A stretch of 64,000 bases of DNA from Candidatus Shapirobacteria bacterium (GTDB lineage Bacteria; Patescibacteriota; Microgenomatia; UBA12405), in the NCBI GenBank assembly GCA_041665485.1, contig JBAYIT010000001.1, positions 8,651 to 72,650 on the forward strand, read 5' to 3'. Under the pieces are notes generated by a model, which did no database searches, was not told the DNA's origin, and saw nothing but the letters and a program-made list of their open reading frames with translations. The translations under genes were made by a program, and so were the position numbers. Of this stretch, positions 43,520 through 61,604 are shown piece by piece. Every line of letters starts with the position of its first letter. Within the stretch, counting starts at the first letter, position 1.

Positions 43520-44230
43520 TTATCGAACAACGTCGGTAAAAATTTCTTCTAGATTATTTTTTCCGAAGAATTTGCAGATATTGCCAATATCCCTTAACAA
43601 AAATTCATTGGCATTGGGGTTGTGGCGAACATCGATGGCTTGAGGAAAATCGATGATGTAGGGCGAATCTTGCCACCAGAGGATATTGAATTCGGACAGG
43701 TCGCCATGGACAATGCCGCATGTGTAAAATGTTTTGATAGAGTCAATGATTTGGTCAAAAACCTGGTTTAGCTGGTTTTGATCTAAATCAACGTCTTTAA
43801 GGAGTGGAGCGGGAAGATTAATATCGCCTAAATACTCCATTAAAATTGAGTCAGTGTTGTAGTCAAAAACTCCCGGAACATTGGCACCTAATTCATAAAA
43901 TTTCTTCAACAGATAAAACTCGCGTTTGGTCCACAATCTTCTGATTAAATCCTTGCCAAATTTATTACCTTTGGCGACTGACTTTTTTTGACTTGGATTT
44001 CTAAAATATTTACCGGCCAAATAGAGACTATTGCCTTGGGTGGTGCTCAATGACCGATTTTTGTATGTTTTAAGGCAATAAAGCTGGTTTTTGATGTCAA
44101 CGAGCAGACAATCGGCCTCTTTGCCAGATTTGATATTTTTAACCAAACGAATACTGGGGTATTTTTTAGACCAAATTTCAACTGATTGAGAACGAGTGGA
44201 CATTGGATTAATTATAGAGGTAAGGCACAA
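43520..44230 (-). CDS. RIO-type (atypical) serine protein kinase-like
   Basis: IVHGDLSEFNILW catalytic-loop motif, as in RIO/Kdo-kinase families. Confidence 0.55.
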   Translation of the reverse strand: MCLTSIINPMSTRSQSVEIWSKKYPSIRLVKNIKSGKEADCLLVDIKNQLYCLKTYKNRSLSTTQGNSLYLAGKYFRNPSQKKSVAKGNKFGKDLIRRLWTKREFYLLKKFYELGANVPGVFDYNTDSILMEYLGDINLPAPLLKDVDLDQNQLNQVFDQIIDSIKTFYTCGIVHGDLSEFNILWWQDSPYIIDFPQAIDVRHNPNANEFLLRDIGNICKFFGKNNLEEIFTDVVR

Positions 44231-44276
44231 GGTTTACCGAAATTAGACCATTTATTTGATATACTTCGAACATCAA

Positions 44277-44364
44277 GGAAGGGTGCGCCGAATGGTAAGG
44301 CACAGGTTTGCTAAACCTGCGTCCCGCAAGGGGCATGAGGGTTCGACTCCCTCCCCTTCCGCCA
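44277..44364 (+). tRNA. tRNA-Ser (GCT), class II, CCA encoded
   Basis: Manual fold: acceptor GGAAGGG/CCCTTCC, anticodon stem CAGGT/ACCTG with loop TTGCTAA, long variable arm, T-arm GAGGG-TTCGACT-CCCTC, discriminator G, CCA. Confidence 0.9.
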
Positions 44365-44500
44365 AAGGGTCAAAGTTCTATGCGACCCACTTGGTAGTCA
44401 AGTATTGCCCCAACCTGTTGCCATATATTCGTCAAATACAACATTTTTCGATTTAACGGCCTGTAATAGGTAGTTTTGTTGTTTGTTGATATAATCCATT

Positions 44501-45001
44501 ATGTCCTATTTAATTGATATTTTAAAGATAATTTTCTCTTGGCCGTTTGTTGTTACTGTGATATTTCTTGTTTTAAAAAAAGACATCTCAAATATTTTGG
44601 GTAAGTCTAATTTAAGCGAAATTTCAATCAAAGATATGATTCGGATTATTTTTAGCGGTCAGTATCAAGCAAAAAAAGAGCCAGAAAAGAAAGATGAGTT
44701 GATGGAAAAGTTGTACGAAAAGATGACAAGAGCCCAATTAAGATTTTTATTTTTATTAAGAGAGTCTTCGTTTAAAGGTCGTGGTCTGGATTGTGGTTAC
44801 GTCAGCAACTACTTCCAACAAATAATTAAGTCCAAAACAGATCGATATGACGGATGGATAACCCCGTTTATTACCCAGTATCTACAAGAGAATCAATTAT
44901 TGTCAGTTTCTGATAACTATTACAAACTTGAAAAGTTAGGTGATGTATTTTTGAAATATATTGAAGATAAGGGATATTCTACTCAAGATAAACCTCTTTA
45001 A
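44501..45001 (+). CDS. Hypothetical protein with N-terminal TM
   Basis: ORF only. Confidence 0.4.
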   Translation: MSYLIDILKIIFSWPFVVTVIFLVLKKDISNILGKSNLSEISIKDMIRIIFSGQYQAKKEPEKKDELMEKLYEKMTRAQLRFLFLLRESSFKGRGLDCGYVSNYFQQIIKSKTDRYDGWITPFITQYLQENQLLSVSDNYYKLEKLGDVFLKYIEDKGYSTQDKPL

Positions 45002-46320
45002 CCGATTGCCAGTTGTTTGTTGTGGAGGATAAATTTAGTTTTTATTGCCGACATTATTTGAATTCTATCTTCGGCAGATCCGGCTTTTAAGACATGGAGT
45101 AAATACTCTTTGGCGGTATCCCGATCTAGCGGTATTTTTTGAGGGTAGTCGAATTGGTTAAGATTTCCAGCTAGAAATTCCTGATGGAGTACTTCGCCTC
45201 GAAGTGAATGGAATCTCTCGATTTCCTCTTTTAACTGATTGGTTAGTGCTTTTTCATCAAGTTTGATTTCATCTATGTGGCTAACTAATTGGTTTATTAA
45301 TTCTTCTTCGCTGATGTATGGCTCGTCGCAGTCGTAATCAACGTGGCGACCGCAGTGGTAGTAAACATATTTTTTGAATGATCCGTATTTGTATCGCTTG
45401 TATTTTTCTTCCGCCGTTATCCATTCTCCACAACTGCCACATTTACATAATCCACGGAACGGGAAGAGCTTTTTATTCCATTCTTTTGGTGGGACATAAA
45501 GTTGTTTTTGGGCCTTATCAAATATTGCTTTAGTAATTAATGGTTCGTGATTTCCTTTGTAGATAATTCCTCCAAATTCAAATTCACCGTAGTAATAAGT
45601 ATTTTTTAACGTTTTGTATACCTTGCTTAGGGCCAGCGGTTTTCCGCTTCTGGTCGTAAATCCAATTTTATCGAGCCACATTTTTATCGTTCTACCGCTT
45701 TGGCCTTTATTTGCCACCCGGTCAAATATTTGTTTAATTATCGGAGCTCGTTCTTTGTCGACCTCAACGTAACTGATTCGGTTATAGCTCATGACGTTGA
45801 GGTACCCAAGCGGGGCAATATTTGGCCTCCATCCGGCCTCACACTTAGCTTTCATGCCTCTTTTGACATTAATACCCCGATTATCGTTTTCCAGCTTGGC
45901 TTGAGAGCAGAGAATCATTAGCAAGAATTTTTCATTTGGGTTGTCGGAGAATGATTGAGAGAAGGTTCTTATTGTTTGAAGTTTTCCCTGATCCATGAGG
46001 TCAACTAGTGTTCCCAAGTCTCCGGCATTCCTGCTTAATCTGTCCGGTGCCCAGGTTAATATGGCATCAAATTCTCCGGCTCTGATATCGATCAGTAGTT
46101 GATTGAATACTGGCCTCAATCCTGATGATTTAGCAGAATGGCTTTCTTGTCGAATTTCTTTTATGAATAAATTTTCTCTTTCGGCCAGCGTCTTCATCTC
46201 ATTGATTTGAGACTCGATCGACATGGCTTGTCTCTCATCCGATTCTGATGACTTTCTGGCGTAAAGGCAATATCTTGTTTGTTTTATTTCCTGTGTCTTT
46301 CCATCTTCTTTGATCTTCAT
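44998..46320 (-). CDS. Large serine recombinase (resolvase catalytic domain + recombinase domain + zinc ribbon); start trimmed to MKIKEDGKT
   Basis: YARKSSESDERQAMSIESQ catalytic-serine region. C-terminal CxxC...C pattern typical of phage-type serine integrases. Confidence 0.85.
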   Translation of the reverse strand: MKIKEDGKTQEIKQTRYCLYARKSSESDERQAMSIESQINEMKTLAERENLFIKEIRQESHSAKSSGLRPVFNQLLIDIRAGEFDAILTWAPDRLSRNAGDLGTLVDLMDQGKLQTIRTFSQSFSDNPNEKFLLMILCSQAKLENDNRGINVKRGMKAKCEAGWRPNIAPLGYLNVMSYNRISYVEVDKERAPIIKQIFDRVANKGQSGRTIKMWLDKIGFTTRSGKPLALSKVYKTLKNTYYYGEFEFGGIIYKGNHEPLITKAIFDKAQKQLYVPPKEWNKKLFPFRGLCKCGSCGEWITAEEKYKRYKYGSFKKYVYYHCGRHVDYDCDEPYISEEELINQLVSHIDEIKLDEKALTNQLKEEIERFHSLRGEVLHQEFLAGNLNQFDYPQKIPLDRDTAKEYLLHVLKAGSAEDRIQIMSAIKTKFILHNKQLAIG

Positions 46321-46381
46321 GACACAACTGTACCGCAGGTTTTGTGGAAGTCTAGGAGATGAATTAGTGCTAAAATAGGGC

Positions 46382-47062
46382 ATGAAAGCTTTTGCTTTGT
46401 CCGTACTACTGGCTATTTCAAGTTTCTTCGGTATAAAAAATAAATCGCAGGTAGTTTTGGTCGAACCGATACCCACAGTTATTCAAAATCAAACCATAGT
46501 TCCGACAGAGGTAGTTGAGATACCCACACAAATAGTTACGCCAACAATTCGTGTAATACCTACCACTATTGCGCCAAAATCATCTATTAATGAGGATATT
46601 CTTAAAAAGTTTTTTGGGGTTTCGGATATTGACTCTGTGAATCAGGTTCTAAATAATAAGTCTCAATTACAAAAATATGAGCAGGAATTTTATCAAAAGT
46701 TTTTAACTTCTCCGATTCCAAGAGTTACAATTTCAAGCAATACTCAACTTATTGCTATGCCGGGAATGAATGGAATGGTTATCTGCACTGGAAGTCAATT
46801 AAAAAAGCTTTATGAAGAAATCGGCCCTATCGAAAGTCAAATATATTTTGAAAAAATGGATTATGACTGTCATCATAACCCCAAAGTGCAAGAAACCAAG
46901 GAATGCCAAGACTGGAGAAAAATAAACGACGCTAACAGGGTCCAGCCCACCAAAGGATCAATTGATGACGAAATTTCAGCCCTACAAAAAAAGATAAACG
47001 AATATGCCAATAAAAAGAATGTTTATGATGATCTTTTAGTTAAATACTGCCCAAAGAAATGA
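46382..47062 (+). CDS. Hypothetical secreted protein
   Basis: ORF with N-terminal hydrophobic segment. Confidence 0.35.
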   Translation: MKAFALSVLLAISSFFGIKNKSQVVLVEPIPTVIQNQTIVPTEVVEIPTQIVTPTIRVIPTTIAPKSSINEDILKKFFGVSDIDSVNQVLNNKSQLQKYEQEFYQKFLTSPIPRVTISSNTQLIAMPGMNGMVICTGSQLKKLYEEIGPIESQIYFEKMDYDCHHNPKVQETKECQDWRKINDANRVQPTKGSIDDEISALQKKINEYANKKNVYDDLLVKYCPKK

Positions 47063-47562
47063 CAAAAACTAAGATAACAATTCTACTCATATCAATACTT
47101 CTAGTTGTTGGAGCAACATCCTTTATTTACCTCAATATTAATAAAATCCCTGCCGAAGATTTCAAAGCACCGGGTAAAAGTTGGCAGTCCCCTAAAAAAG
47201 TTGAGGATTATTTTATTGATAAGTTAAGATTTACTCAAAGTGATTTGGAAAGACAAAAACAAAGCGAGACGGTAGATTTTCGGCCCGGCAAAGGCTCTAC
47301 ACTTGACGCAATCATTAGTAATCTCAACTATTATGGATTCATCCGAAGTGAAAAAGCATTAATGTATGCTTTGGAGAATACGAAAGATATTACTCAAGGA
47401 AATCCGGGATTATTGTCGGTTGGTAAAAATGGGTCGATTGATATTGTTGCCAGTTACCGGATTTCGGAAAATATGACGGCTTGGGAAATAGCGGACACTC
47501 TACTTAATAAATCACACTATTTTGGTCCGAATGATGAGTATAACTATATGTTTATGCCTTAA
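47059..47562 (+). CDS. Hypothetical membrane-anchored protein (weak MltG/YceG-like N-terminal resemblance)
   Basis: TM followed by GKGSTLDAIISNLNYYGFIRS. Weak. Confidence 0.35.
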   Translation: MTKTKITILLISILLVVGATSFIYLNINKIPAEDFKAPGKSWQSPKKVEDYFIDKLRFTQSDLERQKQSETVDFRPGKGSTLDAIISNLNYYGFIRSEKALMYALENTKDITQGNPGLLSVGKNGSIDIVASYRISENMTAWEIADTLLNKSHYFGPNDEYNYMFMP

Positions 47563-47574
47563 AACTAATTAATA

Positions 47575-48294
47575 TTAGCGTGCTTCTTTTATATAAATAT
47601 CCATAAGTTTAGCTGCCCAATCGGAATAGGTTTGATATTGGCCTTCCGTTCCTTTAGAGGTATACATGTGCTTTACCATTTCAGATACTCCTTCATTTGA
47701 AATCTGGGCACATTCTGTCGTAGATAATGTCGGACACTCAGCCTTTAATTTGGCAACATACTTGTTGTAAATCGTCTGGTAACCACTGGTACCATTTGTA
47801 GTAGGACTATTTGTTTTTGACGTTACGGAATTTGTCTTAGTTGGTGCTACTGTTGGGCTAATTACTGAAATCGGCCAGTTGTCTTTCACACCTTCAATTC
47901 CAATTTTTGACCATTCGTCTTTAGACACATTGTATTCATTTAAAATTTCCTGTCGATATTTTTCTTCAAGCTCTTGGACCAATTCTGCATTTGGCTCAAC
48001 ATTTTTTTTGGCTTGTTCAGCATCTATGTGATTTAAGCTGGTAGGATATTTTTCTTCAGCTTCCTTCATTGCTCTGTCTTCTGCTTGGGCAATTTTAGTG
48101 AATATTTCCTGTTTTTCTTCTAAGCTTCTACTGCTTGTTTCAAGTGTCTTTGTGGCAGTATTCACACCATCTTGGAAGCCTTTTTGAGTATCTCTATTTT
48201 TAGCACCAATAATCATCATTAGAATGATAAAGAGAATTATCCCAGAAACTATTTTGTGGCTTAAAAACCAGTTTCGTTGCTTATCTTTTTCCAT
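47575..48294 (-). CDS. Hypothetical membrane-anchored protein
   Basis: ORF with N-terminal TM. Divergent from the XRE gene. Confidence 0.35.
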   Translation of the reverse strand: MEKDKQRNWFLSHKIVSGIILFIILMMIIGAKNRDTQKGFQDGVNTATKTLETSSRSLEEKQEIFTKIAQAEDRAMKEAEEKYPTSLNHIDAEQAKKNVEPNAELVQELEEKYRQEILNEYNVSKDEWSKIGIEGVKDNWPISVISPTVAPTKTNSVTSKTNSPTTNGTSGYQTIYNKYVAKLKAECPTLSTTECAQISNEGVSEMVKHMYTSKGTEGQYQTYSDWAAKLMDIYIKEAR

Positions 48295-48419
48295 ATATTT
48301 ATTAATTATTAATTCAACCCAATGCTAACTGCAACTTAGCACAAAGTCAAGGCTATGTCATGCCTATTTGCTAAGTAGAGCTTAGTGGAGTACAAAGGTT
48401 TTTATTTCCATACTTCGGT

Positions 48420-48635
48420 ATGAGAAGTAATGCCAAATTGTTGAAAGTTATCAGCAAAAGAATTAAGAATTGTCGCAATGAATTAGGTCTGACCCAGGAG
48501 GACTTGGCCGAGAAAGTTGGTGTGAGTCGGGTTTACATTGGTTACGTCGAGCAAGGACGCAACACTCCCTCGCTCGAGATCTTGGAAAAAATTGCCAAAG
48601 CCTTGAAAATTAATCTTTCCGGATTAATCACCTAA
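48420..48635 (+). CDS. XRE-family helix-turn-helix transcriptional regulator (Cro/CI-like)
   Basis: GLTQEDLAEKVGVSRVYIGYVEQGRNTPSLEILEKIAKAL is a canonical HTH_3. Confidence 0.7.
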   Translation: MRSNAKLLKVISKRIKNCRNELGLTQEDLAEKVGVSRVYIGYVEQGRNTPSLEILEKIAKALKINLSGLIT

Positions 48636-50196
48636 TCAAATTTACCCAATTACCCCGAGGATTAATTTGATGGAGCATTTCATGGTCCTCTCTATCAGCC
48701 CAATCTTCACCACGAATACCATTATTTCCCCGATTAGAAAAATTTACCCGAACCGCTATTGGACATCGAGATGTTAACCCTTTGGGAGGAGAAACAAAGA
48801 CATAGTTAACTAGCATAGAAAAGGCATCAACCAAATCATCGTACCTTTCTACTCCAAAGTTCAACAGTTGATCAATCAATTCACCCGAACCGTTCTTAGG
48901 AAAATAGACGTTTCCATTTTTAACGAAGTCACTAGCAATCCTTAGTCTGGTTGATTTATCCTGACCGTGAAGCTCAACTCCAATTGCAGGATAGCCAACC
49001 TTTTGTAAGTCTTGCAACATAAATGTCTGAGAAGCTACTTGTTCAACCAATATAGTACTTTTTCTTTTGGAGTTAACCGTGTTTGATAGTTCTTTAAGAA
49101 TCACCTTTACGTCTGGGTAATCTACTCTTTTGTTAAAAATTTTTGGGAGGATATAAAGAGACAAAAGATCTTTTGTTTTATAAATTCTGCCAACCAGAAT
49201 GGCTGTTTTATCAGCTTTTTCTTTTTCAGAAATAGCCGAATCAATCGAAATAATATAACCAACACAGTTGGCCTCTAGATGAGCCGGAAACACATCATAA
49301 TATCTTACCCATTCTTTTTTAATTATTTGATCTTCTGGTGGGAGGATAATTAACAAATATTCCCGATACCACGACGACTCTGATCCAACCGACATCTTTA
49401 ATTTATCAATTGCATCCATATCTGGAAATTTGTCTTTCCAAGATATATTTCGGTTACTGTCTAATAGTGGATAATTAAAAAACTTCCCACTAAGTGTGGT
49501 ATTTTCAATCATTGCTTTTAGTCTCATCAGTAAACAATCCTCGTGTAACAAATTGCCAACAACAATAAATTTCGTGTTGGTGTCACCGATGGGGAGTATC
49601 TCGCCTGTAAACCACTGAAAAGTTTTGTCTCGACTATCTCTAGTTTTGATACTATTCAAATCTTCAACGTCGTCACACACAACCAAGTCCGGCCGGTATT
49701 GACCATGTCTAATGCCTCGAATACTCTGCTCCGTTGACGCAATGGTGATTCTGGCATTGAAATTAGACAGAACGATTGATGTTGACCCCCACTCATCATT
49801 AACTTCTTGAAATGGGCCAATATCTTTTTTCAGTAATTCATTGGTTTCTAGCTCCTTTTTGATGTTCGCCAAATGAAGTCTGGCTTGGTTCTGGGTTTGG
49901 CTAACTATCAATACAAATTTTCTTTGTTGACAACCAATAATTGCCCAAATTGGATATGAAAGACTCATTAGTGTTGATTTACTAGAACCTCTAAAAGCCA
50001 CGAACACGGCCAATTTCAATCTTATATCTTCAGTAACAGAAAACATTTCGTTGTGAAATGGAGCAAATGGATGGCTTATATAGTGATTAAAGTAAATTGT
50101 AAAAAACCAAAAATGGCTGTTTCTAGCCAAAGTCTTCCGTACAGACCTATTTTTTGCAATTTGTAATTTTTCTGCTTCATTTAATACTTGTTTCAT
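48628..50196 (-). CDS. Phage terminase large subunit-like protein
   Basis: Walker-A-like FRGSSKST, Walker-B-like LVVCDDVED, C-terminal RNaseH-like nuclease region. Preceded by a small HTH protein. Confidence 0.55.
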   Translation of the reverse strand: MKQVLNEAEKLQIAKNRSVRKTLARNSHFWFFTIYFNHYISHPFAPFHNEMFSVTEDIRLKLAVFVAFRGSSKSTLMSLSYPIWAIIGCQQRKFVLIVSQTQNQARLHLANIKKELETNELLKKDIGPFQEVNDEWGSTSIVLSNFNARITIASTEQSIRGIRHGQYRPDLVVCDDVEDLNSIKTRDSRDKTFQWFTGEILPIGDTNTKFIVVGNLLHEDCLLMRLKAMIENTTLSGKFFNYPLLDSNRNISWKDKFPDMDAIDKLKMSVGSESSWYREYLLIILPPEDQIIKKEWVRYYDVFPAHLEANCVGYIISIDSAISEKEKADKTAILVGRIYKTKDLLSLYILPKIFNKRVDYPDVKVILKELSNTVNSKRKSTILVEQVASQTFMLQDLQKVGYPAIGVELHGQDKSTRLRIASDFVKNGNVYFPKNGSGELIDQLLNFGVERYDDLVDAFSMLVNYVFVSPPKGLTSRCPIAVRVNFSNRGNNGIRGEDWADREDHEMLHQINPRGNWVNLIR

Positions 50197-50609
50197 TTTT
50201 GCTCCTCCTTTTTTAAATTTTGTAAATTGTTTGGTAATACTGATGCTAGTTTTAGTGCTTTCATAACCAAAATATTTTGTTCGGGTGTTAGTTGCTCGTC
50301 TTCGTGTCCCAACTTGGCTGTTACTTCGATTTTGTTGGCATAAGCAGGGTGTCGATGATTAAGCCAATAAGCAATGGCTGAGAAATTTTTATCCTTTATG
50401 GACGAAATCAATTGCGACTCTGCCATTTCGTTAATTAAAGAGACGCCTTCACCAATAGCTATTTCTACCGTCTTAGCAAATTCCCGATCTTCATTTTTCC
50501 AACGATAGAAGGTTGCTCGGCCGATACCGATTTTTTCGCAGGCCACCTGAATGATAGGTGTTTTTTTAAGTTGCTCGATCAATAGTTGTTTATCATTATC
50601 AGTTTTCAT
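50193..50609 (-). CDS. Terminase small subunit-like HTH protein
   Basis: HTH IGIGRATFYRWKNED. Position immediately 5' of the terminase large subunit, with overlapping stop/start. Confidence 0.35.
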   Translation of the reverse strand: MKTDNDKQLLIEQLKKTPIIQVACEKIGIGRATFYRWKNEDREFAKTVEIAIGEGVSLINEMAESQLISSIKDKNFSAIAYWLNHRHPAYANKIEVTAKLGHEDEQLTPEQNILVMKALKLASVLPNNLQNLKKEEQK

Positions 50610-51337
50610 ACTTTTAATAACTTGTTATAACGGTCGACGATAATTTGGCAGTATTCTGGATCAATTTCGATTCCCAAGCATTTCCTTTTCGTCTGTTGAC
50701 AAGCAATGAGTGTTGACCCAGACCCCAGAAATGGGTCATAGACATAGTCACCAATTTGAGAGCTATTTAAGATCAAGTGTCGCAGAAGCGATATTGGCTT
50801 CATGGTGGGGTGAAGTGGACTTTTGTTAGGTTTTGGAAAAGCCAAAACACTCTTATCTTTGCTTTTAAAGAACTTGTGTGTCCCAAACCACCCATAAGCA
50901 ACAAGTTCGTGCATGGGTAGATAATCCATTCGTCCGATAACAGCATGGTTTTTTATCCAAATTAGAAGCTGACAAAATTTAAAACCTGAACCGTCAAGAG
51001 CATTCTTTAAAGCAAATATCATCTTGTCAGAGTTGAAGATATAGAAGCTATTTTTTGGAGCCAAATAGGGCTTCACTACCTCTAACCACAGCTGAGTAAA
51101 TTGTTTATATGATTCGTCAGTTTGTAGTTGATCGTTGGCAATAATCTTTCGCTTAATATTTGATTTCGAGAAGCCATCTTTACCCTCAACCAGTGCCACG
51201 GCGTACGGCGGATCTGAGAGTATTAGTGATACTTTTTTATCAACTAATAACTTTTCAATCGATATTTTATCGGTGGCATCACTACATAAAAATAAATGAT
51301 TGCCGATTGCAATTAAGTCTCCCTTTTTAATTGACAT
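50606..51337 (-). CDS. Beta-class DNA methyltransferase (N6-adenine or N4-cytosine), orphan
   Basis: Motif IV DPPY (ILSDPPYAV) N-terminal to motif I (DPFLGSGSTLIA), which is beta-class order. Confidence 0.8.
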   Translation of the reverse strand: MSIKKGDLIAIGNHLFLCSDATDKISIEKLLVDKKVSLILSDPPYAVALVEGKDGFSKSNIKRKIIANDQLQTDESYKQFTQLWLEVVKPYLAPKNSFYIFNSDKMIFALKNALDGSGFKFCQLLIWIKNHAVIGRMDYLPMHELVAYGWFGTHKFFKSKDKSVLAFPKPNKSPLHPTMKPISLLRHLILNSSQIGDYVYDPFLGSGSTLIACQQTKRKCLGIEIDPEYCQIIVDRYNKLLKV

Positions 51338-52604
51338 AAGTAACCTCCTTGCCCGTCAGTTTTGTAAAACGGGAAATAATTAAATCGCAAAAAATTGGCT
51401 CAATCTCCACCATCAAGCACTTTCGCTTTAACTGTTCGCAACTACACATGGTTGAGCCGGAACCGGCAAATAAATCTAGGACTGTGTCTCCAACTTTAGT
51501 ACAACGTCTTATCGCTTTTTCATGGAGTGTTGGACTTTTTTCAGTAGGATGACTATATTCGCTACCTGGCAATCTTTTGACTAACCAGATATTTAGCAAA
51601 TCTAAGATATCGTCTATGGTTCGATTGCCTGAGCCAATTTCTTTATTGAGAATTTCATTTAAATTTTTTGGGTTTTCAGAGATTGATGGTTTGCCTATAG
51701 TTCCATAAATACAAGCTTCATAAGATTTATTAAAAGCCACATTTGGTGTAGGAGAAAATCCGTTCTTAATCCATAAACAAACTCTCTTGTTTTCGATTCC
51801 GATTTCTTTGTATAGATCTTGGATCAAACCGATATGGCGTTCGTCATTCCATATAAATACATGGACATCAGGTTTGGAAATAGCCAGCCCATTTTCGATT
51901 ACCCTTTTTAAAAACTCGCGATATCCCAAATCGGTTTTATTGTCATCAGTTTTACCTCCATACTTTCCTTTACCACCAACACCTTTGTTGTAGTCGAGTC
52001 CAATATTAAAAGGTGGATCAAAATAGGCCATTGATACCATCTTTTCTGATGTTAATCTTTGAACAACCTTAAGATCCATGCTGTTTCCACAAACCAGCAA
52101 ATGTGGTCCGAGTTTGATGATATCCCCCAGTTTTGTCTTGGGAACTTTTATCTTCTCTATTTCCGCTTGAGTATCAAAATCGTCTTCATAAGTTTCCAAA
52201 TTTTCGTCCCAAATTTTAGATAAGTCGTTATTGTCGAAACCAATGTCCATCAATGTTTCTATGTCGAAGTTTTTGAGAAGTTCAAAATCCCAATCACCAA
52301 CTACCCGGTTCAATGTTAGATTTAGTTTTCTCTCTTTTTCGATATCAGAGATGTCAATAAAATTTACTGGAACTACCTTGTACCCCAGATCTTTAGCTAT
52401 CTTTAATCGAAAATGCCCGGCAATTACAACTCCATATCGAGACTTGTTTCCATTAGCTAAAATTGGTATCACAAAGCCATTTTCTCTAATGCTCTTTTTT
52501 AAATCAGAGATAGCTTTCTCGCTCCAATATCGTGGGTTATATTCCGAAGGTTTTAAATCTGTAACTTTTACCAGGACCGTTTTGATACTTGGTGTATTGA
52601 CCAT
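51327..52604 (-). CDS. ParB-like nuclease domain fused to beta-class DNA methyltransferase
   Basis: N-terminus KPSEYNPRYWSEKAISDLKKSIRENGFVIPIL is ParBc. Motif IV FDPPFNIG, then motif I DLFAGSGSTM. Confidence 0.8.
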   Translation of the reverse strand: MVNTPSIKTVLVKVTDLKPSEYNPRYWSEKAISDLKKSIRENGFVIPILANGNKSRYGVVIAGHFRLKIAKDLGYKVVPVNFIDISDIEKERKLNLTLNRVVGDWDFELLKNFDIETLMDIGFDNNDLSKIWDENLETYEDDFDTQAEIEKIKVPKTKLGDIIKLGPHLLVCGNSMDLKVVQRLTSEKMVSMAYFDPPFNIGLDYNKGVGGKGKYGGKTDDNKTDLGYREFLKRVIENGLAISKPDVHVFIWNDERHIGLIQDLYKEIGIENKRVCLWIKNGFSPTPNVAFNKSYEACIYGTIGKPSISENPKNLNEILNKEIGSGNRTIDDILDLLNIWLVKRLPGSEYSHPTEKSPTLHEKAIRRCTKVGDTVLDLFAGSGSTMCSCEQLKRKCLMVEIEPIFCDLIISRFTKLTGKEVTYVN

Positions 52605-52814
52605 AAAAAAAACTCCATAAAGTAATAATGCTCCCGGCCCTGCCTGGAGTGTATCTACTTTCGGAGTTTACAGGTTAAACACCTACGCTCTTGATTGAGT
52701 TAATATAATTTACCACATGTACCAGTTCCTTTCAATAGTGTTTCCCTTGATGTTTATTTGGTTGAAAAGTGTTAATAAATTTTATACAATATTGGTATCA
52801 ACTGGTAAGTAATT

Positions 52815-52988
52815 ATGGAAGAACTTTTGACATTAAATGAAACCGCTCAAATACTGAAAGTTCACCCAAACACTCTTCGATCGTGGGATAAAAAGGGGGT
52901 ATTAATTGCAATTCGGATCGGGGTAAAGAAAGCTAGAAGATACAAAAAAGAAGATATTGAAAAATTTATTAATAAGAAGAATAAATAA
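52815..52988 (+). CDS. Excisionase/AlpA-family helix-turn-helix DNA-binding protein (57 aa; not in supplied ORF track)
   Basis: Manual translation: MEELLTLNETAQILKVHPNTLRSWDKKGVLIAIRIGVKKARRYKKEDIEKFINKKNK. Fits the TIGR01764 excisionase-type HTH. Ends 2 nt before the PLD-SNF2 start. Confidence 0.55.
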   Translation: MEELLTLNETAQILKVHPNTLRSWDKKGVLIAIRIGVKKARRYKKEDIEKFINKKNK

Positions 52989-52990
52989 AC

Positions 52991-55900
52991 ATGTCATTAA
53001 TCGATAATAAAAACCAAACTTTACAAAATGCACTCAAAAATGCTTTAGTAACAGCCGACCGAATTGATATTGCGGTCGGATTTTTTTATTTCTCCGGATT
53101 TGAAGCACTGGCCGACGAGTTAAGAGATAAAAAAATACGTATTTTGGTTGGTTTGGAGGTTGATCCAAAGCTTATTTCGGAGATTTCTCAAAAAGCGAAG
53201 GATGGTGATGTTGATTTATCTAAATATCAAACCAGGGATTCAATTAATTCCAGAACAGTAAAAAAATTAAATTATGTTGATACTTTTGTGGGGTTTATGA
53301 ATGATAGTGACGTATTCGATTCAGATAAAGCTAACGAACTTTACGAACTTTATATTCAAAAAATAAACGACGGTTCTCTTGAGATTAGAAAAACTGTTGA
53401 TGATTACCACGGTAAATATTATGTAGTTCATAACAAAAAAGAAACATCTCAAAGTGGTGACTTCCCGGGTACTGTATTTTTTGGTTCCAGCAATCTTTCT
53501 TATCGAGGACTGAGTGGCCAGGGAGAATTAAATCGTTCCAGTCGAGAGAAAAATGAGTTTGATGAATTTACTGGTCAATTTGAAGAGATGTGGAGCGATT
53601 CAAAATCAATTTCAATAGCAGACGCAAACACTAAAGACCAATTTATCGAAGCGATTAAACCCCGTATTTGGAAGTACTGCACACCTCTCCCTTATTACCT
53701 ATATATTCGAGTACTGCACGAGATATTTTATCAACAGGAAATTAATACACTCAAAACTCCCAAAGCCACCACTAATGGTCTTTACATTGATCTGGAATAT
53801 CAGATTGATGCCATTAAAATGGTTATCGACAAACTCAACAAATATGATGGCGCCATTCTTGCCGATGTTGTCGGTCTTGGAAAAAGCATTATTGCTTCTG
53901 CTGTAGCTAGGAACATGGACGCAAAGACGGTGATAATTGCTCCTCCACACCTTATGTCCCAATGGGAAGAATATAAAGAACAATTTGGCATCAGGGGGTC
54001 GAAAGTATTCAGTTCGGGAAAGATTCAAGAAATTTATGATCGATATCATGAGGCTAAAGAACCCGTATTTTTCATTCTTGATGAAGCTCATCGATATCGT
54101 AATGAAGACACGAATGACTACAAGTTATTACACCAAGTTTGTCGTAGTCATCCAGAAAATAAAGTTTTATTGTTAACTGCCACCCCTTTCAATAATGATC
54201 CAAAAGATGTTTTTGCATTAATAAAGTTGTTTCAAACTCCTGGACAATCAACCATTCGCTCAGTCGACAATTTAAGTCTCCGGTATCGAGACCTTATCCA
54301 ACGATATAAAAAATTACGCAGAGACATGACAAAAGGAGCTATCCAGGAAGCGGTTGATAAAGAAACGGCCGAAATTGCGGCGGAACAGAGAAGATTAATT
54401 GAAACAATTATTATCCGAAGATCGCGACTTGATCTTAACTACATCACTCGTTATCGGGAGGACTTACAACGTCAAAATATTTCCTTTGCTGAAGTACGAG
54501 GTCCAGATCCACTTGAATACGATCTGGGAGAACTTTTTGAACCTTATATGAAAACTTTGGATTTAATCATTAAACCAGATAATGAAGGATTCCTTGGTGC
54601 CCGATATAAGCCTACATCGGAGACCTATATGGATGAAGAGAATCGCAAGAAATTTATCGATAAATATAAAAGTGAGTTTGACGATATTGAGGATCTTCGG
54701 ATTGCTCAGTCAAACTTGGCAAAATTTATGAGACGACTCTTGGTTATGCGTTTTGAAAGCTCAAAAGATGCTTTCCGTTCTACATTGGAAAAAATGATTG
54801 AGTCTAATAAACTTATTGAACATTGGTGGAGTGAGCTGGGAATTGTACCAATTATGAAAAAAGGGCAACTTCCCGATCCGCAGGACTATGACTTAGAAGA
54901 TGGTGAATCTGATTCGCTTACTGAGGAATTGGAATTATTGCGAAATAAAAAAGGTTTCCTGGAAATAAGCAAGGACATGTTAAATCCTCAATTTATTGAA
55001 GATGTACAACACGATACAAAACTATTACAGTCAATTCATGACGATTGGTATTCAAATCCCCAATTTGCTGACCTAGATCCGAAACTAGATAACATTATTG
55101 AAAAAATTGAGGAATTATTGTCTGAAAATAAAGATAGAAAAATTGTTATCTTCTCTAGCTATAAAGACACGGTCGATTATTTGTATAAGATAATGGTCGA
55201 TCGTGGATTTAGCCGCGTTACTAAATATTCAGCTTCGGAGGGAACAGACGCAAACAAAAAAATAATTCGTCAAAACTTTGATGCTTCAATTCAGGAAGCA
55301 CAACAAACAAATGACTTTGATGTTTTAATAGCCACAGACGCATTGAGCGAAGGATTTAATCTTCATAGGGCTGGAATTGTTATTAACTATGACATACCCT
55401 ACAACCCCACTAGAGTTATCCAAAGAGTTGGACGCATTAATCGTATAAATAAGAAGGTTTTTGAGTTCCTAAATATCTACAATTGTTTTCCAACAGCAAT
55501 CGGCGAAGAAGAAACTAGAGTAAAAAGTATTTCTACTCTCAAAATGAAACTAATCAATGCGGTTGTGGGAAGTGATACAAAAACTCTAACCAAAGATGAA
55601 GAATTGGTTAGTTATTTTAAAGATGAATTTGACAAAGCCCAAAAAGAGGACGAAAGGTTGTCTTGGGATACAGTACATAGAGAAAATTTTGAAAGAGCAT
55701 TAAAAGACAGTGATCTTATGAAAAAAGTCCTGGAGCTTCCTAGAAGGAGTCGTATAAAAAGGATTGGTCGTAAAAACTCCGGTACAATAGTATTTGGGAA
55801 GAAGGGGCAGAACTCCGTGTTTACTTATGGTATTACTACTGACGACATTAGAGTTACTTCAGCCGAGGAATCTTTGCCAGTTTTCGAAGCAAAACCAGAT

Positions 55901-56275
55901 GAAAAAAGTGAATTAGTTGATAAGGAGTTTACTAATATTTTTAATTTGGCTAAAGAAAAACTTTTCGCCAAACACGAGTTGCCCCAAATAAAGGGTAGAA
56001 GGGCAACTGCTATTAATATTTTAAAAGTGATTGCTGACAAAATGCCAATTGCTAGAGATTATTGCGAAGACATTATTTCTATTATCAAGACCCTTGATGA
56101 TATTAGCGATGGGTCTCTAAAAGATATTTCTCAATTGAATGCAAACAAGGTTGATGAGTCATACAAAAAATTGTTAAACATTATTCCGGAAGTGTATGTG
56201 AGAAATATTTTAAATCGATCTAAACATACTGACGAGGCACAAGAATTACTGTTGTTTGCGGAACAATTACTATGA
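52991..56275 (+). CDS. PLD-family (HKD) nuclease domain fused to SNF2/DEAH-box superfamily-2 helicase
   Basis: N-terminus has HxK...GSxN (VHNKKETSQSGDFPGTVFFGSSNLS). Helicase motifs I LADVVGLGKS, II ILDEAHRYRN, III LLTATPFNN, V LIATDALSEGFNL, VI QRVGRINRI. Confidence 0.85.
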   Translation: MSLIDNKNQTLQNALKNALVTADRIDIAVGFFYFSGFEALADELRDKKIRILVGLEVDPKLISEISQKAKDGDVDLSKYQTRDSINSRTVKKLNYVDTFVGFMNDSDVFDSDKANELYELYIQKINDGSLEIRKTVDDYHGKYYVVHNKKETSQSGDFPGTVFFGSSNLSYRGLSGQGELNRSSREKNEFDEFTGQFEEMWSDSKSISIADANTKDQFIEAIKPRIWKYCTPLPYYLYIRVLHEIFYQQEINTLKTPKATTNGLYIDLEYQIDAIKMVIDKLNKYDGAILADVVGLGKSIIASAVARNMDAKTVIIAPPHLMSQWEEYKEQFGIRGSKVFSSGKIQEIYDRYHEAKEPVFFILDEAHRYRNEDTNDYKLLHQVCRSHPENKVLLLTATPFNNDPKDVFALIKLFQTPGQSTIRSVDNLSLRYRDLIQRYKKLRRDMTKGAIQEAVDKETAEIAAEQRRLIETIIIRRSRLDLNYITRYREDLQRQNISFAEVRGPDPLEYDLGELFEPYMKTLDLIIKPDNEGFLGARYKPTSETYMDEENRKKFIDKYKSEFDDIEDLRIAQSNLAKFMRRLLVMRFESSKDAFRSTLEKMIESNKLIEHWWSELGIVPIMKKGQLPDPQDYDLEDGESDSLTEELELLRNKKGFLEISKDMLNPQFIEDVQHDTKLLQSIHDDWYSNPQFADLDPKLDNIIEKIEELLSENKDRKIVIFSSYKDTVDYLYKIMVDRGFSRVTKYSASEGTDANKKIIRQNFDASIQEAQQTNDFDVLIATDALSEGFNLHRAGIVINYDIPYNPTRVIQRVGRINRINKKVFEFLNIYNCFPTAIGEEETRVKSISTLKMKLINAVVGSDTKTLTKDEELVSYFKDEFDKAQKEDERLSWDTVHRENFERALKDSDLMKKVLELPRRSRIKRIGRKNSGTIVFGKKGQNSVFTYGITTDDIRVTSAEESLPVFEAKPDEKSELVDKEFTNIFNLAKEKLFAKHELPQIKGRRATAINILKVIADKMPIARDYCEDIISIIKTLDDISDGSLKDISQLNANKVDESYKKLLNIIPEVYVRNILNRSKHTDEAQELLLFAEQLL

Positions 56276-59200
56276 TGCAATTAAATAATGATTACCAACG
56301 TGATGATTTTCTAAAATTTCTCGAAGAAGATTTTTTAACTGACTTCAAAAGAGATATTAGATCTGTAAATACTAGTAGTCTCTCGTCTATTCAAAAAGCT
56401 AATTACTTGGGTGAAAGTAGGGATTTGGATCTTCAGGTTTTTGAGTTCTTATTTGAAGGCTCTCCAAACAAACGCATCGCTTTAACAAAAGATGCTTTTT
56501 CAGTTATGCGATCAAGCGCTATTTATAATGCATTGGCCGTCTTCCATTCTCCAAACAAGAAAGACTGGAGATTCTCCTTGATGACTGCTACCCCAGAACC
56601 GACTCAAAAAGGTAAGGTGTCACTTTCATATTCAAATCCTAGGCGCTTGTCTTTCTTTTTGGGTCCTAATGCTAAAACAAACACTCCCACAAAATTTCTC
56701 ATAAACAAGGGGAAAATTATTGACCTTGAAGACTTGAAAAAAAGATTTTCTATAGAAGTTGTTAATAGGGAGTTCTATAAAGAAATATCCCAAACATTCA
56801 CAAAATTAGTTAATGGATTACTTAAACTACCATCAACCCAAGATAAAAGCCAAGCTAATATTGATTTTGCAGTCCGGTTAATTGGTCGTGTTATTTTTTG
56901 TTGGTTTTTACGTGAGAAAAAAAGTAATACTGGAATTGCGCTAATGCCAAAAGACCTTTTATCACTCGAAGCGGTTAAGGAAAACGATGATTATTATCAC
57001 AAAATCCTTGAGCCAATATTCTTTGAAGTTCTTAACAAACCAATCAAACTAAGAAAAGAAGATTTTTCTAAAGAACCTTTCTCTTCTGTTCCTTATCTTA
57101 ATGGAGGCTTATTTTCCCCTCAAGTAGATGACTACTACAAGCGAACGAATGGAGATTTTCAGTCGCAACACCACAACACACTAATTGTCCCAGATAGTTG
57201 GATTAAAAGCTTCTATGAAATTCTTGAAACTTACAACTTTACAATTGATGAGAACACAAGTTATGACGAAGAGCTTTCCATTGACCCGGAAATGTTGGGT
57301 AGAATTTTCGAAAATCTTTTGGCGGAAATTAACCCAGAAACAGGGGAATCGGCCAGAAAAAGCACAGGGAGTTTCTATACCCCCAGAATTATCGTTAATT
57401 ATATGGTTGATGAGAGTCTATTACTTTATCTTAAGGAAAATACTGGGATACATGAAGAAAAGTTGCGGACAATTATTAGTTATGACCTTGATGATGATTT
57501 GGAAAATCCCGTAACTACAGATGAAAAAGAAAAAATAATCGATGCACTAGAAAAAGTTAAAATTCTTGACCCAGCCTGTGGTTCTGGAGCTTTTCCAATC
57601 GGGGCATTACAAAAAATTGTTTTTATTCTTCAACAAACCGATCCAGACGGGCAAATGTGGTTCAAAAAGCAGATAAAAAACACTTCTCCGGAAATAAAAA
57701 GGGTTGTAGAACGTGAGTTTGCTCATAAAAATTTTGATTATATTAGAAAGCTTGGAATCATTAGAGAAAACATATACGGAATTGATATTCAACCAATTGC
57801 TACAGAAATCTCACGACTTCGTTGCTTCCTAACTCTTGTAGTCGACGAAGGCATCCAAGAAGACCTAGAAAATAGAGGTATAGAACCACTACCAAACCTG
57901 GATTTTAAATTTGTTACAGCTAACACGCTGATCGGTCTTCCTGGGTCACAAACAATTAATCAAATGGGATTGTTTGAAGATGATGCAGGAATTAAGGAGC
58001 TAAAAGAGCTTCGAGATATGTTTTTTAATGCCTCAGGTACAGAGAGAGAACAGCTTAAACTTGAATTTGTCCAATCACAAAATCACATGTTTCAACGGTT
58101 AGTAAGTGAAGGAAGAAGGGGTCATGCGGACTTAACTACAAAATTAACTACTTGGGATCCGTTTAGCCACAAGACATCCTCATGGTTTGACTCAGAATGG
58201 ATGTTTGGAATTAAGGATGGTTTTAATATTGTCATTGGGAACCCTCCATATGTCCAATTACAAACAAACGGGGGATACCTTGCAAACCTGTACGAAAATC
58301 AAAGTTATAGTACGTTCTGTAGATCAGGAGATATCTATTCTCTATTTTATGAAAAAGGTATTCAGTTGATTACCAACAAAGGTTGTTTGTGTTTTATATC
58401 TTCTAATAAATGGATGAGAACATCATATGGTTCAAAATTAAGAAGCTTTCTAAGTAAGCTAAACATGCTAAATCTTATTGATTTTGCAGGATTTCAAGTG
58501 TTCGAAACAGCCGCTGTAGATACCACCATAGCCCTAGTGCAAAGATCAGAAAATCTAAATAAACTTGAAGCTGCACATTTCAAGGACAATTATGTCCAAG
58601 GTGATGATATTAGGGACTATTTTAATAAAAATAAGGTTGATTTAAAAAACTTAGATAGCGAACCATGGTTTATCGGCGGATATGAAACAATTAGTCTCAA
58701 ATCCAAGATTGAACATGAAGGAGTACCTATTAAACGATGGCCGGAATTATCAATTAACTATGGAATAAAAACTGGGGCCAATGATGTTTTTATAATCAAC
58801 GAAGAATTTAGGAATAAATTAATTAATTTGGAACCACAATCAGCCAGTATAATGAAACCTCTTCTTCGTGGATTACATACAAAAAACTATTACACTGAGT
58901 GGGAAAATGACTACTTACTTTACGTTCCATGGCATTTTCCATTAGAAGGTGCCATTAAAGGTTCCTCGTTAAAAGCAGAAGAAACTTTTAAAGTGCAATA
59001 TCCTCGATTATATGAATATTTTCATAGTCGGAAAGAACGACTACTTAAAAGAAACAAGGCTGAGACAGGGATAAGATATGAATGGTATGCGCTACAAAGG
59101 AGTGGGTCAAGCTATAAATCTGATTTTCTCAAACCAAAAGTGGTTTGGATGAATATGAATAGAGGGTGGAAATTTGCATATTCAGAAAGAGATTTTTATG

Positions 59201-59553
59201 TCGATATGACTTTGAACTTTTTAGCATCTGAAAAATACGCAAAATTTATGACAGGCGTTTTGTCAAGTCCTGTACACAAATGGTACTTTTTACAAACCGG
59301 AAGAATTTTTGATAACGGCGGCTTTATGACAAAGGTAGACAGCGTGAGTAATTTCCCCGTACCAACGATTAATGAAGACAATAAATTAATTTTTACTGCA
59401 GTTGAAAAACTAATAGAAAAAATACTTGACATTAAGTCACATAATAAAGAAGCAGATACAATAAAAATTGAAAACGAATTGAACGAACAAGTATATCTAC
59501 TTTATAAACTTACACCGGATGAAATTGAAATTATTAAAGAGGCAACAAAATAA
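56272..59553 (+). CDS. Large gamma-class N6-adenine DNA methyltransferase with TaqI_C-type specificity domain (PglX/Eco57I/MmeI-like architecture)
   Basis: NGGLF helical-domain motif, motif X GSFYTP, motif I ILDPACGSGAFP, motif IV VIGNPPYVQ, C-terminal GIKTGANDVFII (TaqI_C). ATGA start/stop overlap with the upstream gene. Confidence 0.85.
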   Translation: MMQLNNDYQRDDFLKFLEEDFLTDFKRDIRSVNTSSLSSIQKANYLGESRDLDLQVFEFLFEGSPNKRIALTKDAFSVMRSSAIYNALAVFHSPNKKDWRFSLMTATPEPTQKGKVSLSYSNPRRLSFFLGPNAKTNTPTKFLINKGKIIDLEDLKKRFSIEVVNREFYKEISQTFTKLVNGLLKLPSTQDKSQANIDFAVRLIGRVIFCWFLREKKSNTGIALMPKDLLSLEAVKENDDYYHKILEPIFFEVLNKPIKLRKEDFSKEPFSSVPYLNGGLFSPQVDDYYKRTNGDFQSQHHNTLIVPDSWIKSFYEILETYNFTIDENTSYDEELSIDPEMLGRIFENLLAEINPETGESARKSTGSFYTPRIIVNYMVDESLLLYLKENTGIHEEKLRTIISYDLDDDLENPVTTDEKEKIIDALEKVKILDPACGSGAFPIGALQKIVFILQQTDPDGQMWFKKQIKNTSPEIKRVVEREFAHKNFDYIRKLGIIRENIYGIDIQPIATEISRLRCFLTLVVDEGIQEDLENRGIEPLPNLDFKFVTANTLIGLPGSQTINQMGLFEDDAGIKELKELRDMFFNASGTEREQLKLEFVQSQNHMFQRLVSEGRRGHADLTTKLTTWDPFSHKTSSWFDSEWMFGIKDGFNIVIGNPPYVQLQTNGGYLANLYENQSYSTFCRSGDIYSLFYEKGIQLITNKGCLCFISSNKWMRTSYGSKLRSFLSKLNMLNLIDFAGFQVFETAAVDTTIALVQRSENLNKLEAAHFKDNYVQGDDIRDYFNKNKVDLKNLDSEPWFIGGYETISLKSKIEHEGVPIKRWPELSINYGIKTGANDVFIINEEFRNKLINLEPQSASIMKPLLRGLHTKNYYTEWENDYLLYVPWHFPLEGAIKGSSLKAEETFKVQYPRLYEYFHSRKERLLKRNKAETGIRYEWYALQRSGSSYKSDFLKPKVVWMNMNRGWKFAYSERDFYVDMTLNFLASEKYAKFMTGVLSSPVHKWYFLQTGRIFDNGGFMTKVDSVSNFPVPTINEDNKLIFTAVEKLIEKILDIKSHNKEADTIKIENELNEQVYLLYKLTPDEIEIIKEATK

Positions 59554-59556: not shown

Positions 59557-60261
59557 ATGGCTAGAGACACATTTGTTTTGAACATAGATCTTGAGAGTGG
59601 AGGTAGAAGCAGTGCTCAGATAAGCGAATATCCAGATAAGTGTCCAACGTGCCACGAAGGTGGACAGCCAAAGTTTGTTTTGGCTCATTCATTAGGTGCA
59701 GCTTGGGATTATGACGAAGTTATTGAAGCCATTTTTAAATGTCCTATAAATAAGTGTAAAAGATATTATATTGGCTATTATTACAAACCTAGTAGAACAG
59801 GCGATATCTTCTTTCTTAAAGAAACGCTTGCTCCGCAGTTTTGGAAACCAATATACTTTTCAGACGAAATCAAGAATATTAGTTCACGATTTGAAAGAAT
59901 TTACAATCAAGCCGCTATTGCTGAAAACTTTGGTTTGGATGAAATTGCCGGTGGTGGTTACCGAAAGTCATTAGAATTTTTAGTAAAGGATTACCTTATT
60001 TACCTTAAATTAAAGACTAAAACCCAAATAGCCGAATTAAAGCTTAGTAAAGCTGTTGCCTTAATTAATGACAATCGTATCCAAGTTTGTGCTAAAAGAG
60101 CTGCCTGGTTAGGTAATGATGAAATTCATTTCAATCGTGTCTGGGAAAACAAAGATATTCAAAACCTTAAGGAATTAATAAAACTTTCTACTAATTTAAT
60201 GGAAAGTGATGTAATTGCTAAAAAATACGAGAAAGAAATGCCTGAAAAAAAGAAAAATTAA
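59557..60261 (+). CDS. Zinc-ribbon protein with possible HEPN/DUF4145-like C-terminal domain
   Basis: CPTC...CPINKC ribbon. C-terminal ...CAKRAAWLGNDEIHFN weakly resembles DUF4145. Starts 3 nt after the MTase stop. Confidence 0.4.
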   Translation: MARDTFVLNIDLESGGRSSAQISEYPDKCPTCHEGGQPKFVLAHSLGAAWDYDEVIEAIFKCPINKCKRYYIGYYYKPSRTGDIFFLKETLAPQFWKPIYFSDEIKNISSRFERIYNQAAIAENFGLDEIAGGGYRKSLEFLVKDYLIYLKLKTKTQIAELKLSKAVALINDNRIQVCAKRAAWLGNDEIHFNRVWENKDIQNLKELIKLSTNLMESDVIAKKYEKEMPEKKKN

Positions 60262-60265
60262 TTTT

Positions 60266-60499
60266 ATGAATAAATATCAACAAAGAATCAGAAACTTATA
60301 CATTTTTGACGCTAATAAACCTTTTCGTCTCTCCCGGTCAAAAATCGACATGTTTTTGGAGTGTCCCCGTTGTTTTTATCTGGATAGAAGACTGGGGCTT
60401 GGGAGACCAAGCACGCCGAGATGGTCACTAAACACAGTTGTGGATGAACTGCTTAAAATAGAATTTGACTTACTTCGAAAAAAATATGTTTATGCTTAA
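60266..60499 (+). pseudogene. N-terminal fragment of RecB-family (COG2887/PD-(D/E)xK) nuclease, truncated
   Basis: LSRSKIDMFLECPRCFYLDRRLGL matches the conserved N-terminal SPSRxxxFxxCPxxYxxR motif of these ~260-aa nucleases. The ORF stops after ~77 aa and the next ORF is in another frame. Confidence 0.35.
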
Positions 60500-61286: not shown

Positions 61287-61288
61287 AT

Positions 61289-61600: not shown

Positions 61601-61604
61601 AAGT

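Follow-up and report, generated by a model that had tools for sequence, protein, structure and literature searches.

The 64,000-nucleotide stretch analyzed here (the window; positions 8,651 to 72,650 of contig JBAYIT010000001.1 from a Candidatus Shapirobacteria bacterium) carries, directly at the 3' end of a tRNA-Ser(GCT) gene, an integrated, phage-derived element with its own terminase genes and no detected virion genes. Our interpretation, to which we assign a probability of roughly 55%, is that of an integrative element resembling a satellite, the terminase of which would package the DNA of the element into the capsids of a helper phage. As delimited by sequence comparison, the element is a member of a large Patescibacteria family characterized by an operon coding for a ParB-methyltransferase fusion (ParB-MTase), an optional second methyltransferase (MTase), and the small (TerS) and large (TerL) terminase subunits, together with a large serine recombinase, often a backbone protein designated unk547, two conserved termini, and a lack of virion genes. 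The gene content, the conservation and monophyly of the family, the intact catalytic motifs, the targeting of tRNA genes, the termini (in relatives), and the cargo slots are all observed directly. No prior description of the family was found in the full-text literature searched, which is an absence of evidence in that literature only; the elements thus appear to be undescribed and to make up a new satellite-like integrative family, with the window copy as one of its members, possibly in rearranged form.

The core of the element is a tightly overlapping four-gene operon on the minus strand. The first gene codes for ParB-MTase (51327-52604), a fusion of ParB_N and N6_N4_Mtase domains (Pfam; phrog_498, 1.5e-84), and is followed by those for an N6/N4 DNA MTase (50606-51337; N6_N4_Mtase, 3.4e-33; phrog_498, 2.9e-64; DPPY motif in the translation), a TerS-like helix-turn-helix (HTH) protein (50193-50609; HTH_Tnp_1_2, 5.8e-7; phrog_4102 TerS, 7e-9; and other TerS PHROGs) that is translationally coupled to TerL, and TerL itself (48628-50196; phrog_38, 4e-80). 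The window TerL has no Pfam match at E≤0.01, and the phrog_38 match spans residues 15-517; its Walker A and Walker B motifs (G70-S71-x-K73-S74-T75 and D175/D176) and the C-terminal nuclease Asp residues are invariant in 20 homologues with 50-74% identity, and TerL homologues carry the PF17289 Terminase_6C domain. The large serine recombinase (integrase) of 440 aa is encoded on the same strand (44998-46320) and has Resolvase, Recombinase, and Zn_ribbon_recom domains in that order (PF00239, 7e-21; PF07508, 5e-13; PF13408, 5e-10), a match to the phrog_95 integrases (3.5e-67), and a YARKSSESD motif in the translation. An XRE/Cro-CI-type HTH regulator gene (48420-48635, plus strand; HTH_3, 2.7e-19) is convergent with TerL and overlaps its stop codon, and is found in the same place in three relatives (L008, L009, and L010) with 73-84% identity. 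The first-pass annotation of this DNA had listed the tRNA-Ser(GCT), large serine recombinase, XRE, TerL, TerS, and two MTase genes and had proposed an integrated, phage-derived element, and all of these hold; the MTases are indeed orphans, as the operon contains no restriction endonuclease gene, and the reported lack of capsid, portal, and tail genes is borne out by PHROG and Pfam scans of 43-64 kb, in which none were detected.

More than 2,400 TerL homologues are found at E≤1e-10, many of them on Patescibacteria contigs of 100-900 kb. Scanning IMG/VR with the single TerL protein gave no matches and an alignment-based scan gave the 79 best loci, the neighborhoods of which, together with those of three homologues, were compared by tblastn and by clustering of all open reading frames (ORFs). 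The block of ParB-MTase, optional second MTase, TerS, TerL, and ~440-aa serine recombinase genes is present without structural genes in ~50 of the 79 IMG/VR loci, as well as in L008 (on a 906-kb contig) and in L010 and L011 (on a 437-kb contig), and the window conforms to this pattern with the operon and recombinase gene on one contig (44998-52604). Only four families make up the core, namely TerL (62 loci), MTase (60), TerS (52), and the serine recombinase (45); TerS is upstream of TerL in 52 of the 62 loci, ParB-MTase is upstream of TerS in ~55, the recombinase gene often follows TerL by 100 to 300 bp, and the genes flanking the block vary between loci.

In a neighbor-joining tree the TerLs of the capsid-less loci form one clade, sister to the portal-linked TerLs of the apparent phages L053, L058/59, and L062, which are 41-42% identical to the window TerL; those of cultured phages, Mu-like phages such as RcapMu and SuMu, are only ~27% identical. 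In L058 the TerL gene (42% identical to that of the window) is followed by genes for a portal (phrog_2662, 1e-119), a protease/scaffold, and an HK97-type major capsid protein (phrog_10, 6e-90), and homologues of the L058 portal (family f20) directly follow TerL in L053, L059, and L062. The window and the 8.6 kb that follow it contain no homologue of the portal or the major capsid protein of these sister phages, and of the portal, major capsid, tail, and lysis genes of a functional tailed prophage, none was detected in the window element or in the complete 14.5-kb L008 element. Elements with both ends measure 14.5 to 19 kb and the sister-phage contigs 32 to 50 kb, a size difference that is consistent with the satellite model. 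The confinement of the capsid-less TerLs to a single clade argues for one old origin followed by diversification rather than many independent decays, and together with the intact catalytic motifs the sequences point to a single, old, and long-diversified lineage; the same pattern of TerL clades is the signature used to argue that phage-inducible chromosomal islands of the capsid-forming type (cf-PICIs) are old lineages and not degraded prophages (bioRxiv 10.1101/2022.09.08.507074).

These comparisons bear most directly on the possibility that the element is a cryptic, decaying prophage, in which a temperate phage integrated at the tRNA gene has lost its structural and lysis genes and the remainder is nonfunctional. 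The genes are phage derived, the window copy is without a far end, and the G+C content changes from ~0.43 before the tRNA to 0.32-0.40 from the tRNA on, all as expected for such a remnant, but the same reduced gene set is present in ~50 loci with 40-79% TerL identity, invariant catalytic residues, and intact reading frames, the TerLs fall into a single clade, and both termini are conserved. We consider decay very improbable indeed, and the label of cryptic prophage, one of three offered by the first-pass annotation, gives way to that of a conserved monophyletic lineage, probably under purifying selection; the other two, a satellite and an integrative island delivering a defense operon, are those that the evidence favors.

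Two variations on the block were seen among the loci. In a subfamily of six loci (L026, L027, L031, L032, L033, and L069), TerS and the recombinase gene are separated by a tandem pair of diverged TerL genes, each ~45% identical to the window TerL. Other contigs (L016/L020, on one 39-kb IMG/VR contig, as well as L068 and L010) carry two family elements each, which are arranged about a cluster of tRNA genes either in tandem or in inverted orientation, and some of these bear a second serine recombinase of 537-580 aa at the far end.

An explanation in which packaging plays no part in transfer is that these are mobile defense islands. The TerS-TerL pair would itself be antiphage, binding, cleaving, or mis-packaging phage DNA or procapsids, with the MTases marking self DNA and the serine recombinase only moving the island, and cell-to-cell transfer would be independent of packaging. 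Tight coupling of the MTase-MTase-TerS-TerL operon, the dense packing of the islands with defense cargo, the retention of the TerL nuclease residues, and the lack of replication and capsid-redirection genes are all compatible with this, but TerL, TerS, and the recombinase match no PADLOC model, and fragments of ParB-MTase are also found upstream of TerL in more distant phage-like loci (L071, L073, and L076), so the linkage is inherited from phages. Moreover, the packaging genes carried by known satellites serve transfer (bioRxiv 10.1101/2022.09.08.507074; PMC10085698). On balance, an antiphage role for the terminase appears unlikely.

The element is encoded next to a tRNA gene, and this position is shared widely with its relatives. 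In 51 related loci (656 kb), 12 of the 16 tRNA genes are within 2 kb downstream of the serine recombinase gene, a zone that makes up 6.5% of the sequence (binomial P=8e-12). In every case the nearest tRNA gene and the recombinase gene are arranged tail-to-tail; the set comprises Ser-GCT, Ser-CGA, Glu, Gln, Asp, and Arg, with a Pro tRNA at 3.3 kb. In the window the tRNA-Ser(GCT) gene (44277-44364, plus strand; ARAGORN; Rfam tRNA, 54.9 bits) is abutted at its 3' end by a ~100-nt terminal motif of the element (44365-44467, 103 nt, plus strand; nhmmer E=2e-17), and the same motif follows tRNA-Ser(GCT), tRNA-Ser(CGA), and tRNA-Pro genes in L010, L067, L037, and L008 (nhmmer E of 1e-17 to 1e-4). It is confined largely to the clade of the window recombinase, which groups with the recombinases of the motif-bearing loci L010, L008, L067, and L014. 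The tRNA adjacency, which the first-pass annotation had thought might be incidental, is on the strength of these tail-to-tail arrangements and common junction sequences the integration site of the element, and the element starts at 44365, directly at the tRNA 3' end, rather than somewhere within 140 nt of it. In mycobacteria, tyrosine integrases use tRNA genes and serine integrases do not (PMC10654092), and the targeting of tRNA genes by a serine integrase is unusual in comparison with well-studied systems. We also considered the end motif as an RNA, and rejected this, as it has no Rfam family and no consensus fold.

The other end of the element is recognizable in relatives. Two loci with unk547 (L091 and L095) have a ~150-nt noncoding sequence in common that ends in the 25-mer GGTTCCAGACCCAC.TGCTCCGCCA, and the homology breaks off exactly after CCGCCA. 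The 25-mer is identical at 18 of 25 positions to the tRNA 3' end, which in the window reads …CTTCCGCCA, with an identical run of 7 nt, such that the two form a short, imperfect repeat ending in TCCGCCA. In all, the far end is present in L091, L095/96, L068, L008, L011, and L020, and partly in L018. In L008 it lies at 5775-5914 and the tRNA-Pro and motif at 20217-20418, placing the two ends 14.5 kb apart, with a host Ddl gene and a strong terminator just outside the far end, which fits the native downstream region of the tRNA; in L020 the ends are ~19 kb apart. From these sequences we propose that attP consists of the 25-mer (P) and the motif (P'), that attB is the tRNA 3' end, that attL is the tRNA plus motif, and that attR is the far end plus host DNA, with the tRNA-Ser(GCT) 3' end in the window as the putative attB-derived arm of the left junction and crossover presumably in or beside the shared TCCGCCA. 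Direct repeats had been suggested as a check on the element, and the outcome is divided: a search of the window and its 8.6-kb extension for repeats, direct as well as inverted, and for further copies of the tRNA 3' end gave nothing above chance, and no tRNA fragment was found there; long direct repeats are lacking in the window, and the short imperfect 25-nt repeat is seen in relatives.

Between its conserved genes the element has variable slots that are filled with cargo. One of the backbone genes is unk547 (62643-64286, plus strand, crossing the window end at 64000), the 547-aa product of which contains several zinc ribbons. This protein has at least 407 homologues in Patescibacteria, no Pfam domain, and only a marginal Lar-like match among PHROGs, and its AlphaFold2 model (confidence score, pLDDT, 87) has no Foldseek match in the PDB below E=0.01. 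In six loci (L012, L018, L041, L048, L051, and L095) unk547 adjoins or is near ParB-MTase on the opposite strand. L095 has a window-like backbone with a type I restriction-modification (R-M) system (HTH17-HsdM/HsdS/HsdR) between ParB-MTase and unk547, and in L012 there is no cargo between them; it follows that the window segment 52815-62624 occupies a cargo slot inside the element. As this defense block lies between two backbone genes, the right limit of 52,990 given by the first-pass annotation falls short of the end of the island, which is at 64,286 or farther. Drawn from these gene orders, the island extends from 44,365 to at least 64,286, at least 20 kb, of which the window contains the tRNA-proximal core.

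The slot in the window begins with a defense cassette (52815-59553, plus strand) coding for a 57-aa HTH_17 protein, a 1094-aa PLD/HKD-SNF2 helicase, and a 1093-aa Eco57I/type IIG-like MTase (PADLOC C3a139 HKD+Snf2, 4.8e-37; REase_MTase_IIG, 5.7e-122). It is followed by further cargo or accessory genes (59557-62624, plus strand) for proteins of 234 aa (phrog_1305 DNA-binding protein), 266 aa, and 103 aa, and a 339-aa Schlafen/AlbA_2 protein, none of which are kept across the family. Sets of HTH_17, PLD/HKD-SNF2, and Eco57I-type genes recur at 41-47% identity in the window (52815-59553) and inside the related elements L030 (10107-16162) and L057 (6359-12945), and their placement with respect to the packaging module differs among the three. 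L095 has a fusion of the HTH_17 domain with HsdM, and an HTH_17 head may thus mark exchangeable defense cassettes. A second variable slot separates the end motif from the recombinase gene. Its contents differ among relatives, with ars-like genes in the case of L008; in the window it is filled by a gene (44501-45001, plus strand) for a 166-aa membrane-anchored protein with no match in Pfam, PHROG, or PADLOC and no homologue in related loci. An extended -10-like sequence, TGATATAAT, at 44487-44495, just 5' of the ATG at 44501, is a putative promoter. Recurrent cargo in the family includes type I and type III-like R-M systems, reverse transcriptases, and S24 repressors. In L040, L047, L036, L020, L055, and L050 (families f7 and f28) the cargo consists of a gene for a reverse transcriptase (RVT_1, 8.5e-24) and one for a small neighbor of ~115 aa, which are probably a retron-like defense module or one resembling the defense-associated reverse transcriptases (DRTs).

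The surroundings of the tRNA-proximal end differ from those in three relatives. In three loci (L091, L093, and L094) with RIO kinases 71-73% identical, a tRNA-less 'fragment + motif' copy is directly upstream of the RIO gene, and a different island lies in each beyond it. In the window (43520-44364) RIO has the reverse orientation and lies across the att-like site from where it is in these three, and upstream of it only the promoter-like (-10-like) part of the motif is left; the opposite side and orientation imply that an inversion separates these genomes from the window. Two cassette-like arrangements were also seen, one in which RIO is between two tRNA-less 'fragment + motif' copies with promoter-like ends (L091, 9849-10790) and one in which a Ham1p-like gene is similarly placed (L010, 6582-7739). 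These flanks suggest tandem accretion or single-gene cassettes at the recombinase site.

It is conceivable from such junctions that there is no single element at all, and that the tRNA-Ser/RIO locus is a hot spot with an integron-like array of cassettes that are bounded by attP-like sites and serviced by the serine recombinase, the terminase operon being one insertion among them. Single genes flanked by tRNA-less copies, three relatives with different islands at one and the same junction, and the inversion separating the window from its relatives speak for such an array. Cassette-like units are present in only two loci, however, the block from ParB-MTase to the serine recombinase moves as a whole and is found in unrelated genomic surroundings, and the L008 block is bounded by both termini, and we judge an array without a unit element to be quite improbable.

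We return to the satellite-like element, whose life cycle can be sketched as a model; from the crossover point through induction and packaging in helper capsids to the role of the MTases, its steps are what we infer from gene content and comparison. The serine recombinase would join attP (25-mer P arm and motif P') to the tRNA 3' end (…TCCGCCA), leaving the tRNA intact, and XRE, S24, or ImmR/ImmA-type repressors would hold the element silent. Once the cell is infected by a helper whose TerL belongs to the sister clade, the TerS-TerL of the element would recognize element DNA, and this DNA, either excised and concatemerized or in situ, would be packaged into procapsids made by the helper. The cotranscribed MTases may pre-methylate the DNA and promote its survival of restriction in the next host, and the defense systems in the variable slots could pay for the upkeep of the element.

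Several observations weigh against this reading. No sign of excision, circular junctions, or encapsidated copies was seen, no helper phage is linked to these hosts, and among the loci there is no circular or terminally redundant contig and none with terminal repeats. The core has no recognizable replication module by gene families or by Pfam and PHROG scans, and no capsid-size-redirection gene is present; TerS is the weakest gene assignment of the locus. By eye, dyad symmetry is not evident in the arms proposed for the att sites, and tandem 'fragment + motif' copies are not predicted by strict attP×attB serine integration. The far end is absent from the window and its extension (1-72.6 kb) even in a profile search at E≤100, and with this absence and the inverted RIO flank the window copy may no longer be mobile; it may be rearranged, immobilized, or longer than 28 kb from the tRNA. 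The comparison with empty sites that had been recommended found none in the relatives searched: an RIO-kinase query of genome contigs returned distant relatives only, a 60-nt tRNA pattern had 0 matches in the metagenome collection, and host-side sequence beyond the L095 far end matched a filled site only.

Among known systems, the element by analogy would work most like cf-PICIs, in having its own TerS and TerL, and like the PICI-like elements (PLEs), in having a serine recombinase and no capsid genes. The cf-PICIs are integrative satellites that code for their own TerS and TerL, with TerLs in old clades apart from those of phages, and their 11 core components include the capsid, portal, protease, head-tail adaptor/connector, int, alpA, and pri-rep (PMC10085698; bioRxiv 10.1101/2022.09.08.507074). 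They thus add capsid, portal, protease, and connector genes (usually with HNH), AlpA, and a primase-replicase, and steal tails only, whereas none of these additions were detected in the window element, in which only int (of the serine type), TerS, and TerL are present; it differs further in its Patescibacteria host and in having a large serine recombinase as integrase. PICIs, including the SaPIs (pathogenicity islands of Staphylococcus aureus), are likewise islands of ~15 kb with an integrase, a repressor, defense cargo, and a packaging module redirecting helper capsids, with ~3 copies per helper-genome length. In contrast to the window element, which codes for TerL, PICIs have TerS only and use the helper TerL, and they have pri-rep and AlpA/Stl regulation (PMC10085698). 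No primase-replicase or AlpA match, and no recognizable replication module, was found in the window element.

The PLEs integrate into Vibrio cholerae repeats and code for RepA and capsid-remodeling factors, and they are not known to have a TerL. Like the window element, these satellites (of Vibrio cholerae) lack capsid genes, and they depend on a large serine recombinase to integrate and excise (PMC9618062; PMC10085698). Only the recombinase class is common to the two, as the host here is Candidatus Shapirobacteria and the core gene set differs, and no sequence relationship to PLEs was seen, although PLE core profiles were not searched. Islands and prophages with tyrosine integrases offer a parallel for the integration site, with insertion at tRNA 3' ends, a tRNA-3'-like sequence at the other end, and tandem accretion, but the present elements have a serine-family recombinase, and their repeat is short and imperfect. 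The closest phage relatives are temperate Caudoviricetes with ParB-MTase-TerS-TerL (L053, L058/59, and L062, and distantly RcapMu and SuMu), which have a related TerL with ParB-MTase fragments upstream of it; in the sister phages TerL precedes the portal gene (and in L058 also those of the protease/scaffold and major capsid protein), whereas in the element TerL is followed by regulators and the recombinase gene.

Much of bacterial diversity belongs to the candidate phyla radiation (CPR; Patescibacteria), and for these bacteria DNA exchange and viral parasites are poorly understood. If the satellite reading is correct, CPR defense systems would have a major route of gene flow in this family, which counts thousands of TerL homologues; its satellite design, with TerS and TerL of its own and no capsid genes, would be new, and its serine integrases would clearly exemplify the targeting of tRNA 3' ends. 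In a broader proposal, which we advance tentatively and at somewhat under even odds, this is a very large CPR satellite family in which only a methylation-plus-terminase module and a tRNA-targeting serine recombinase are retained and the termini are defined, its members being the main shuttles for R-M and defense cassettes and their sites also bounding integron-like single-gene cassettes. The TerL hallmark alone mislabels such islands as viruses, as they account for ~50 of the 79 best IMG/VR matches, and many of the CPR viruses and proviruses in viral catalogues such as IMG/VR would then be capsid-less elements and not phages. Recombinases with reconstructable attP and attB sites are also candidate tools for genome engineering.

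The remaining genes of the core are accessory. Beside the recombinase gene are two overlapping genes (46382-47562, plus strand) for proteins of 226 and 167 aa with hydrophobic N-terminal segments and no family match in Pfam or PHROG; L008 has counterparts of 233 and 166 aa in the same position and orientation (families f31 and f21). A 239-aa protein with an N-terminal transmembrane segment (47575-48294, minus strand) has weak PHROG matches only (E of ~2e-3) and a partial homologue in L067.

On the host side, the ten largest ORFs in 1-39 kb include seven with housekeeping functions (pyruvate phosphate dikinase [PPDK], penicillin-binding proteins [PBPs], GroEL, and enolase) and three without a Pfam match, and no phage structural family is found among them by Pfam. 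Three large ORFs (429, 501, and 572 aa) at 5889-8680 and 25562-27280 have no Pfam domain at E≤1e-5. At the other side, directly after unk547, is an M78 peptidase (ImmA/IrrE type) gene with an HTH_3 partner (L001 12651-13603; window ~64,255-65,207). Mobile elements typically have such a pair as a switch for induction, and this one is not kept in other family members; past the M78 peptidase, beyond the window, the genes are of uncertain status. Among them are genes for a metallo-beta-lactamase-fold protein and a ~230-250-aa protein (L001 13946-15771; window ~65,550-67,375), a pair that recurs near the L056 element (f34+350, u+229) and that may be further cargo rather than host DNA.

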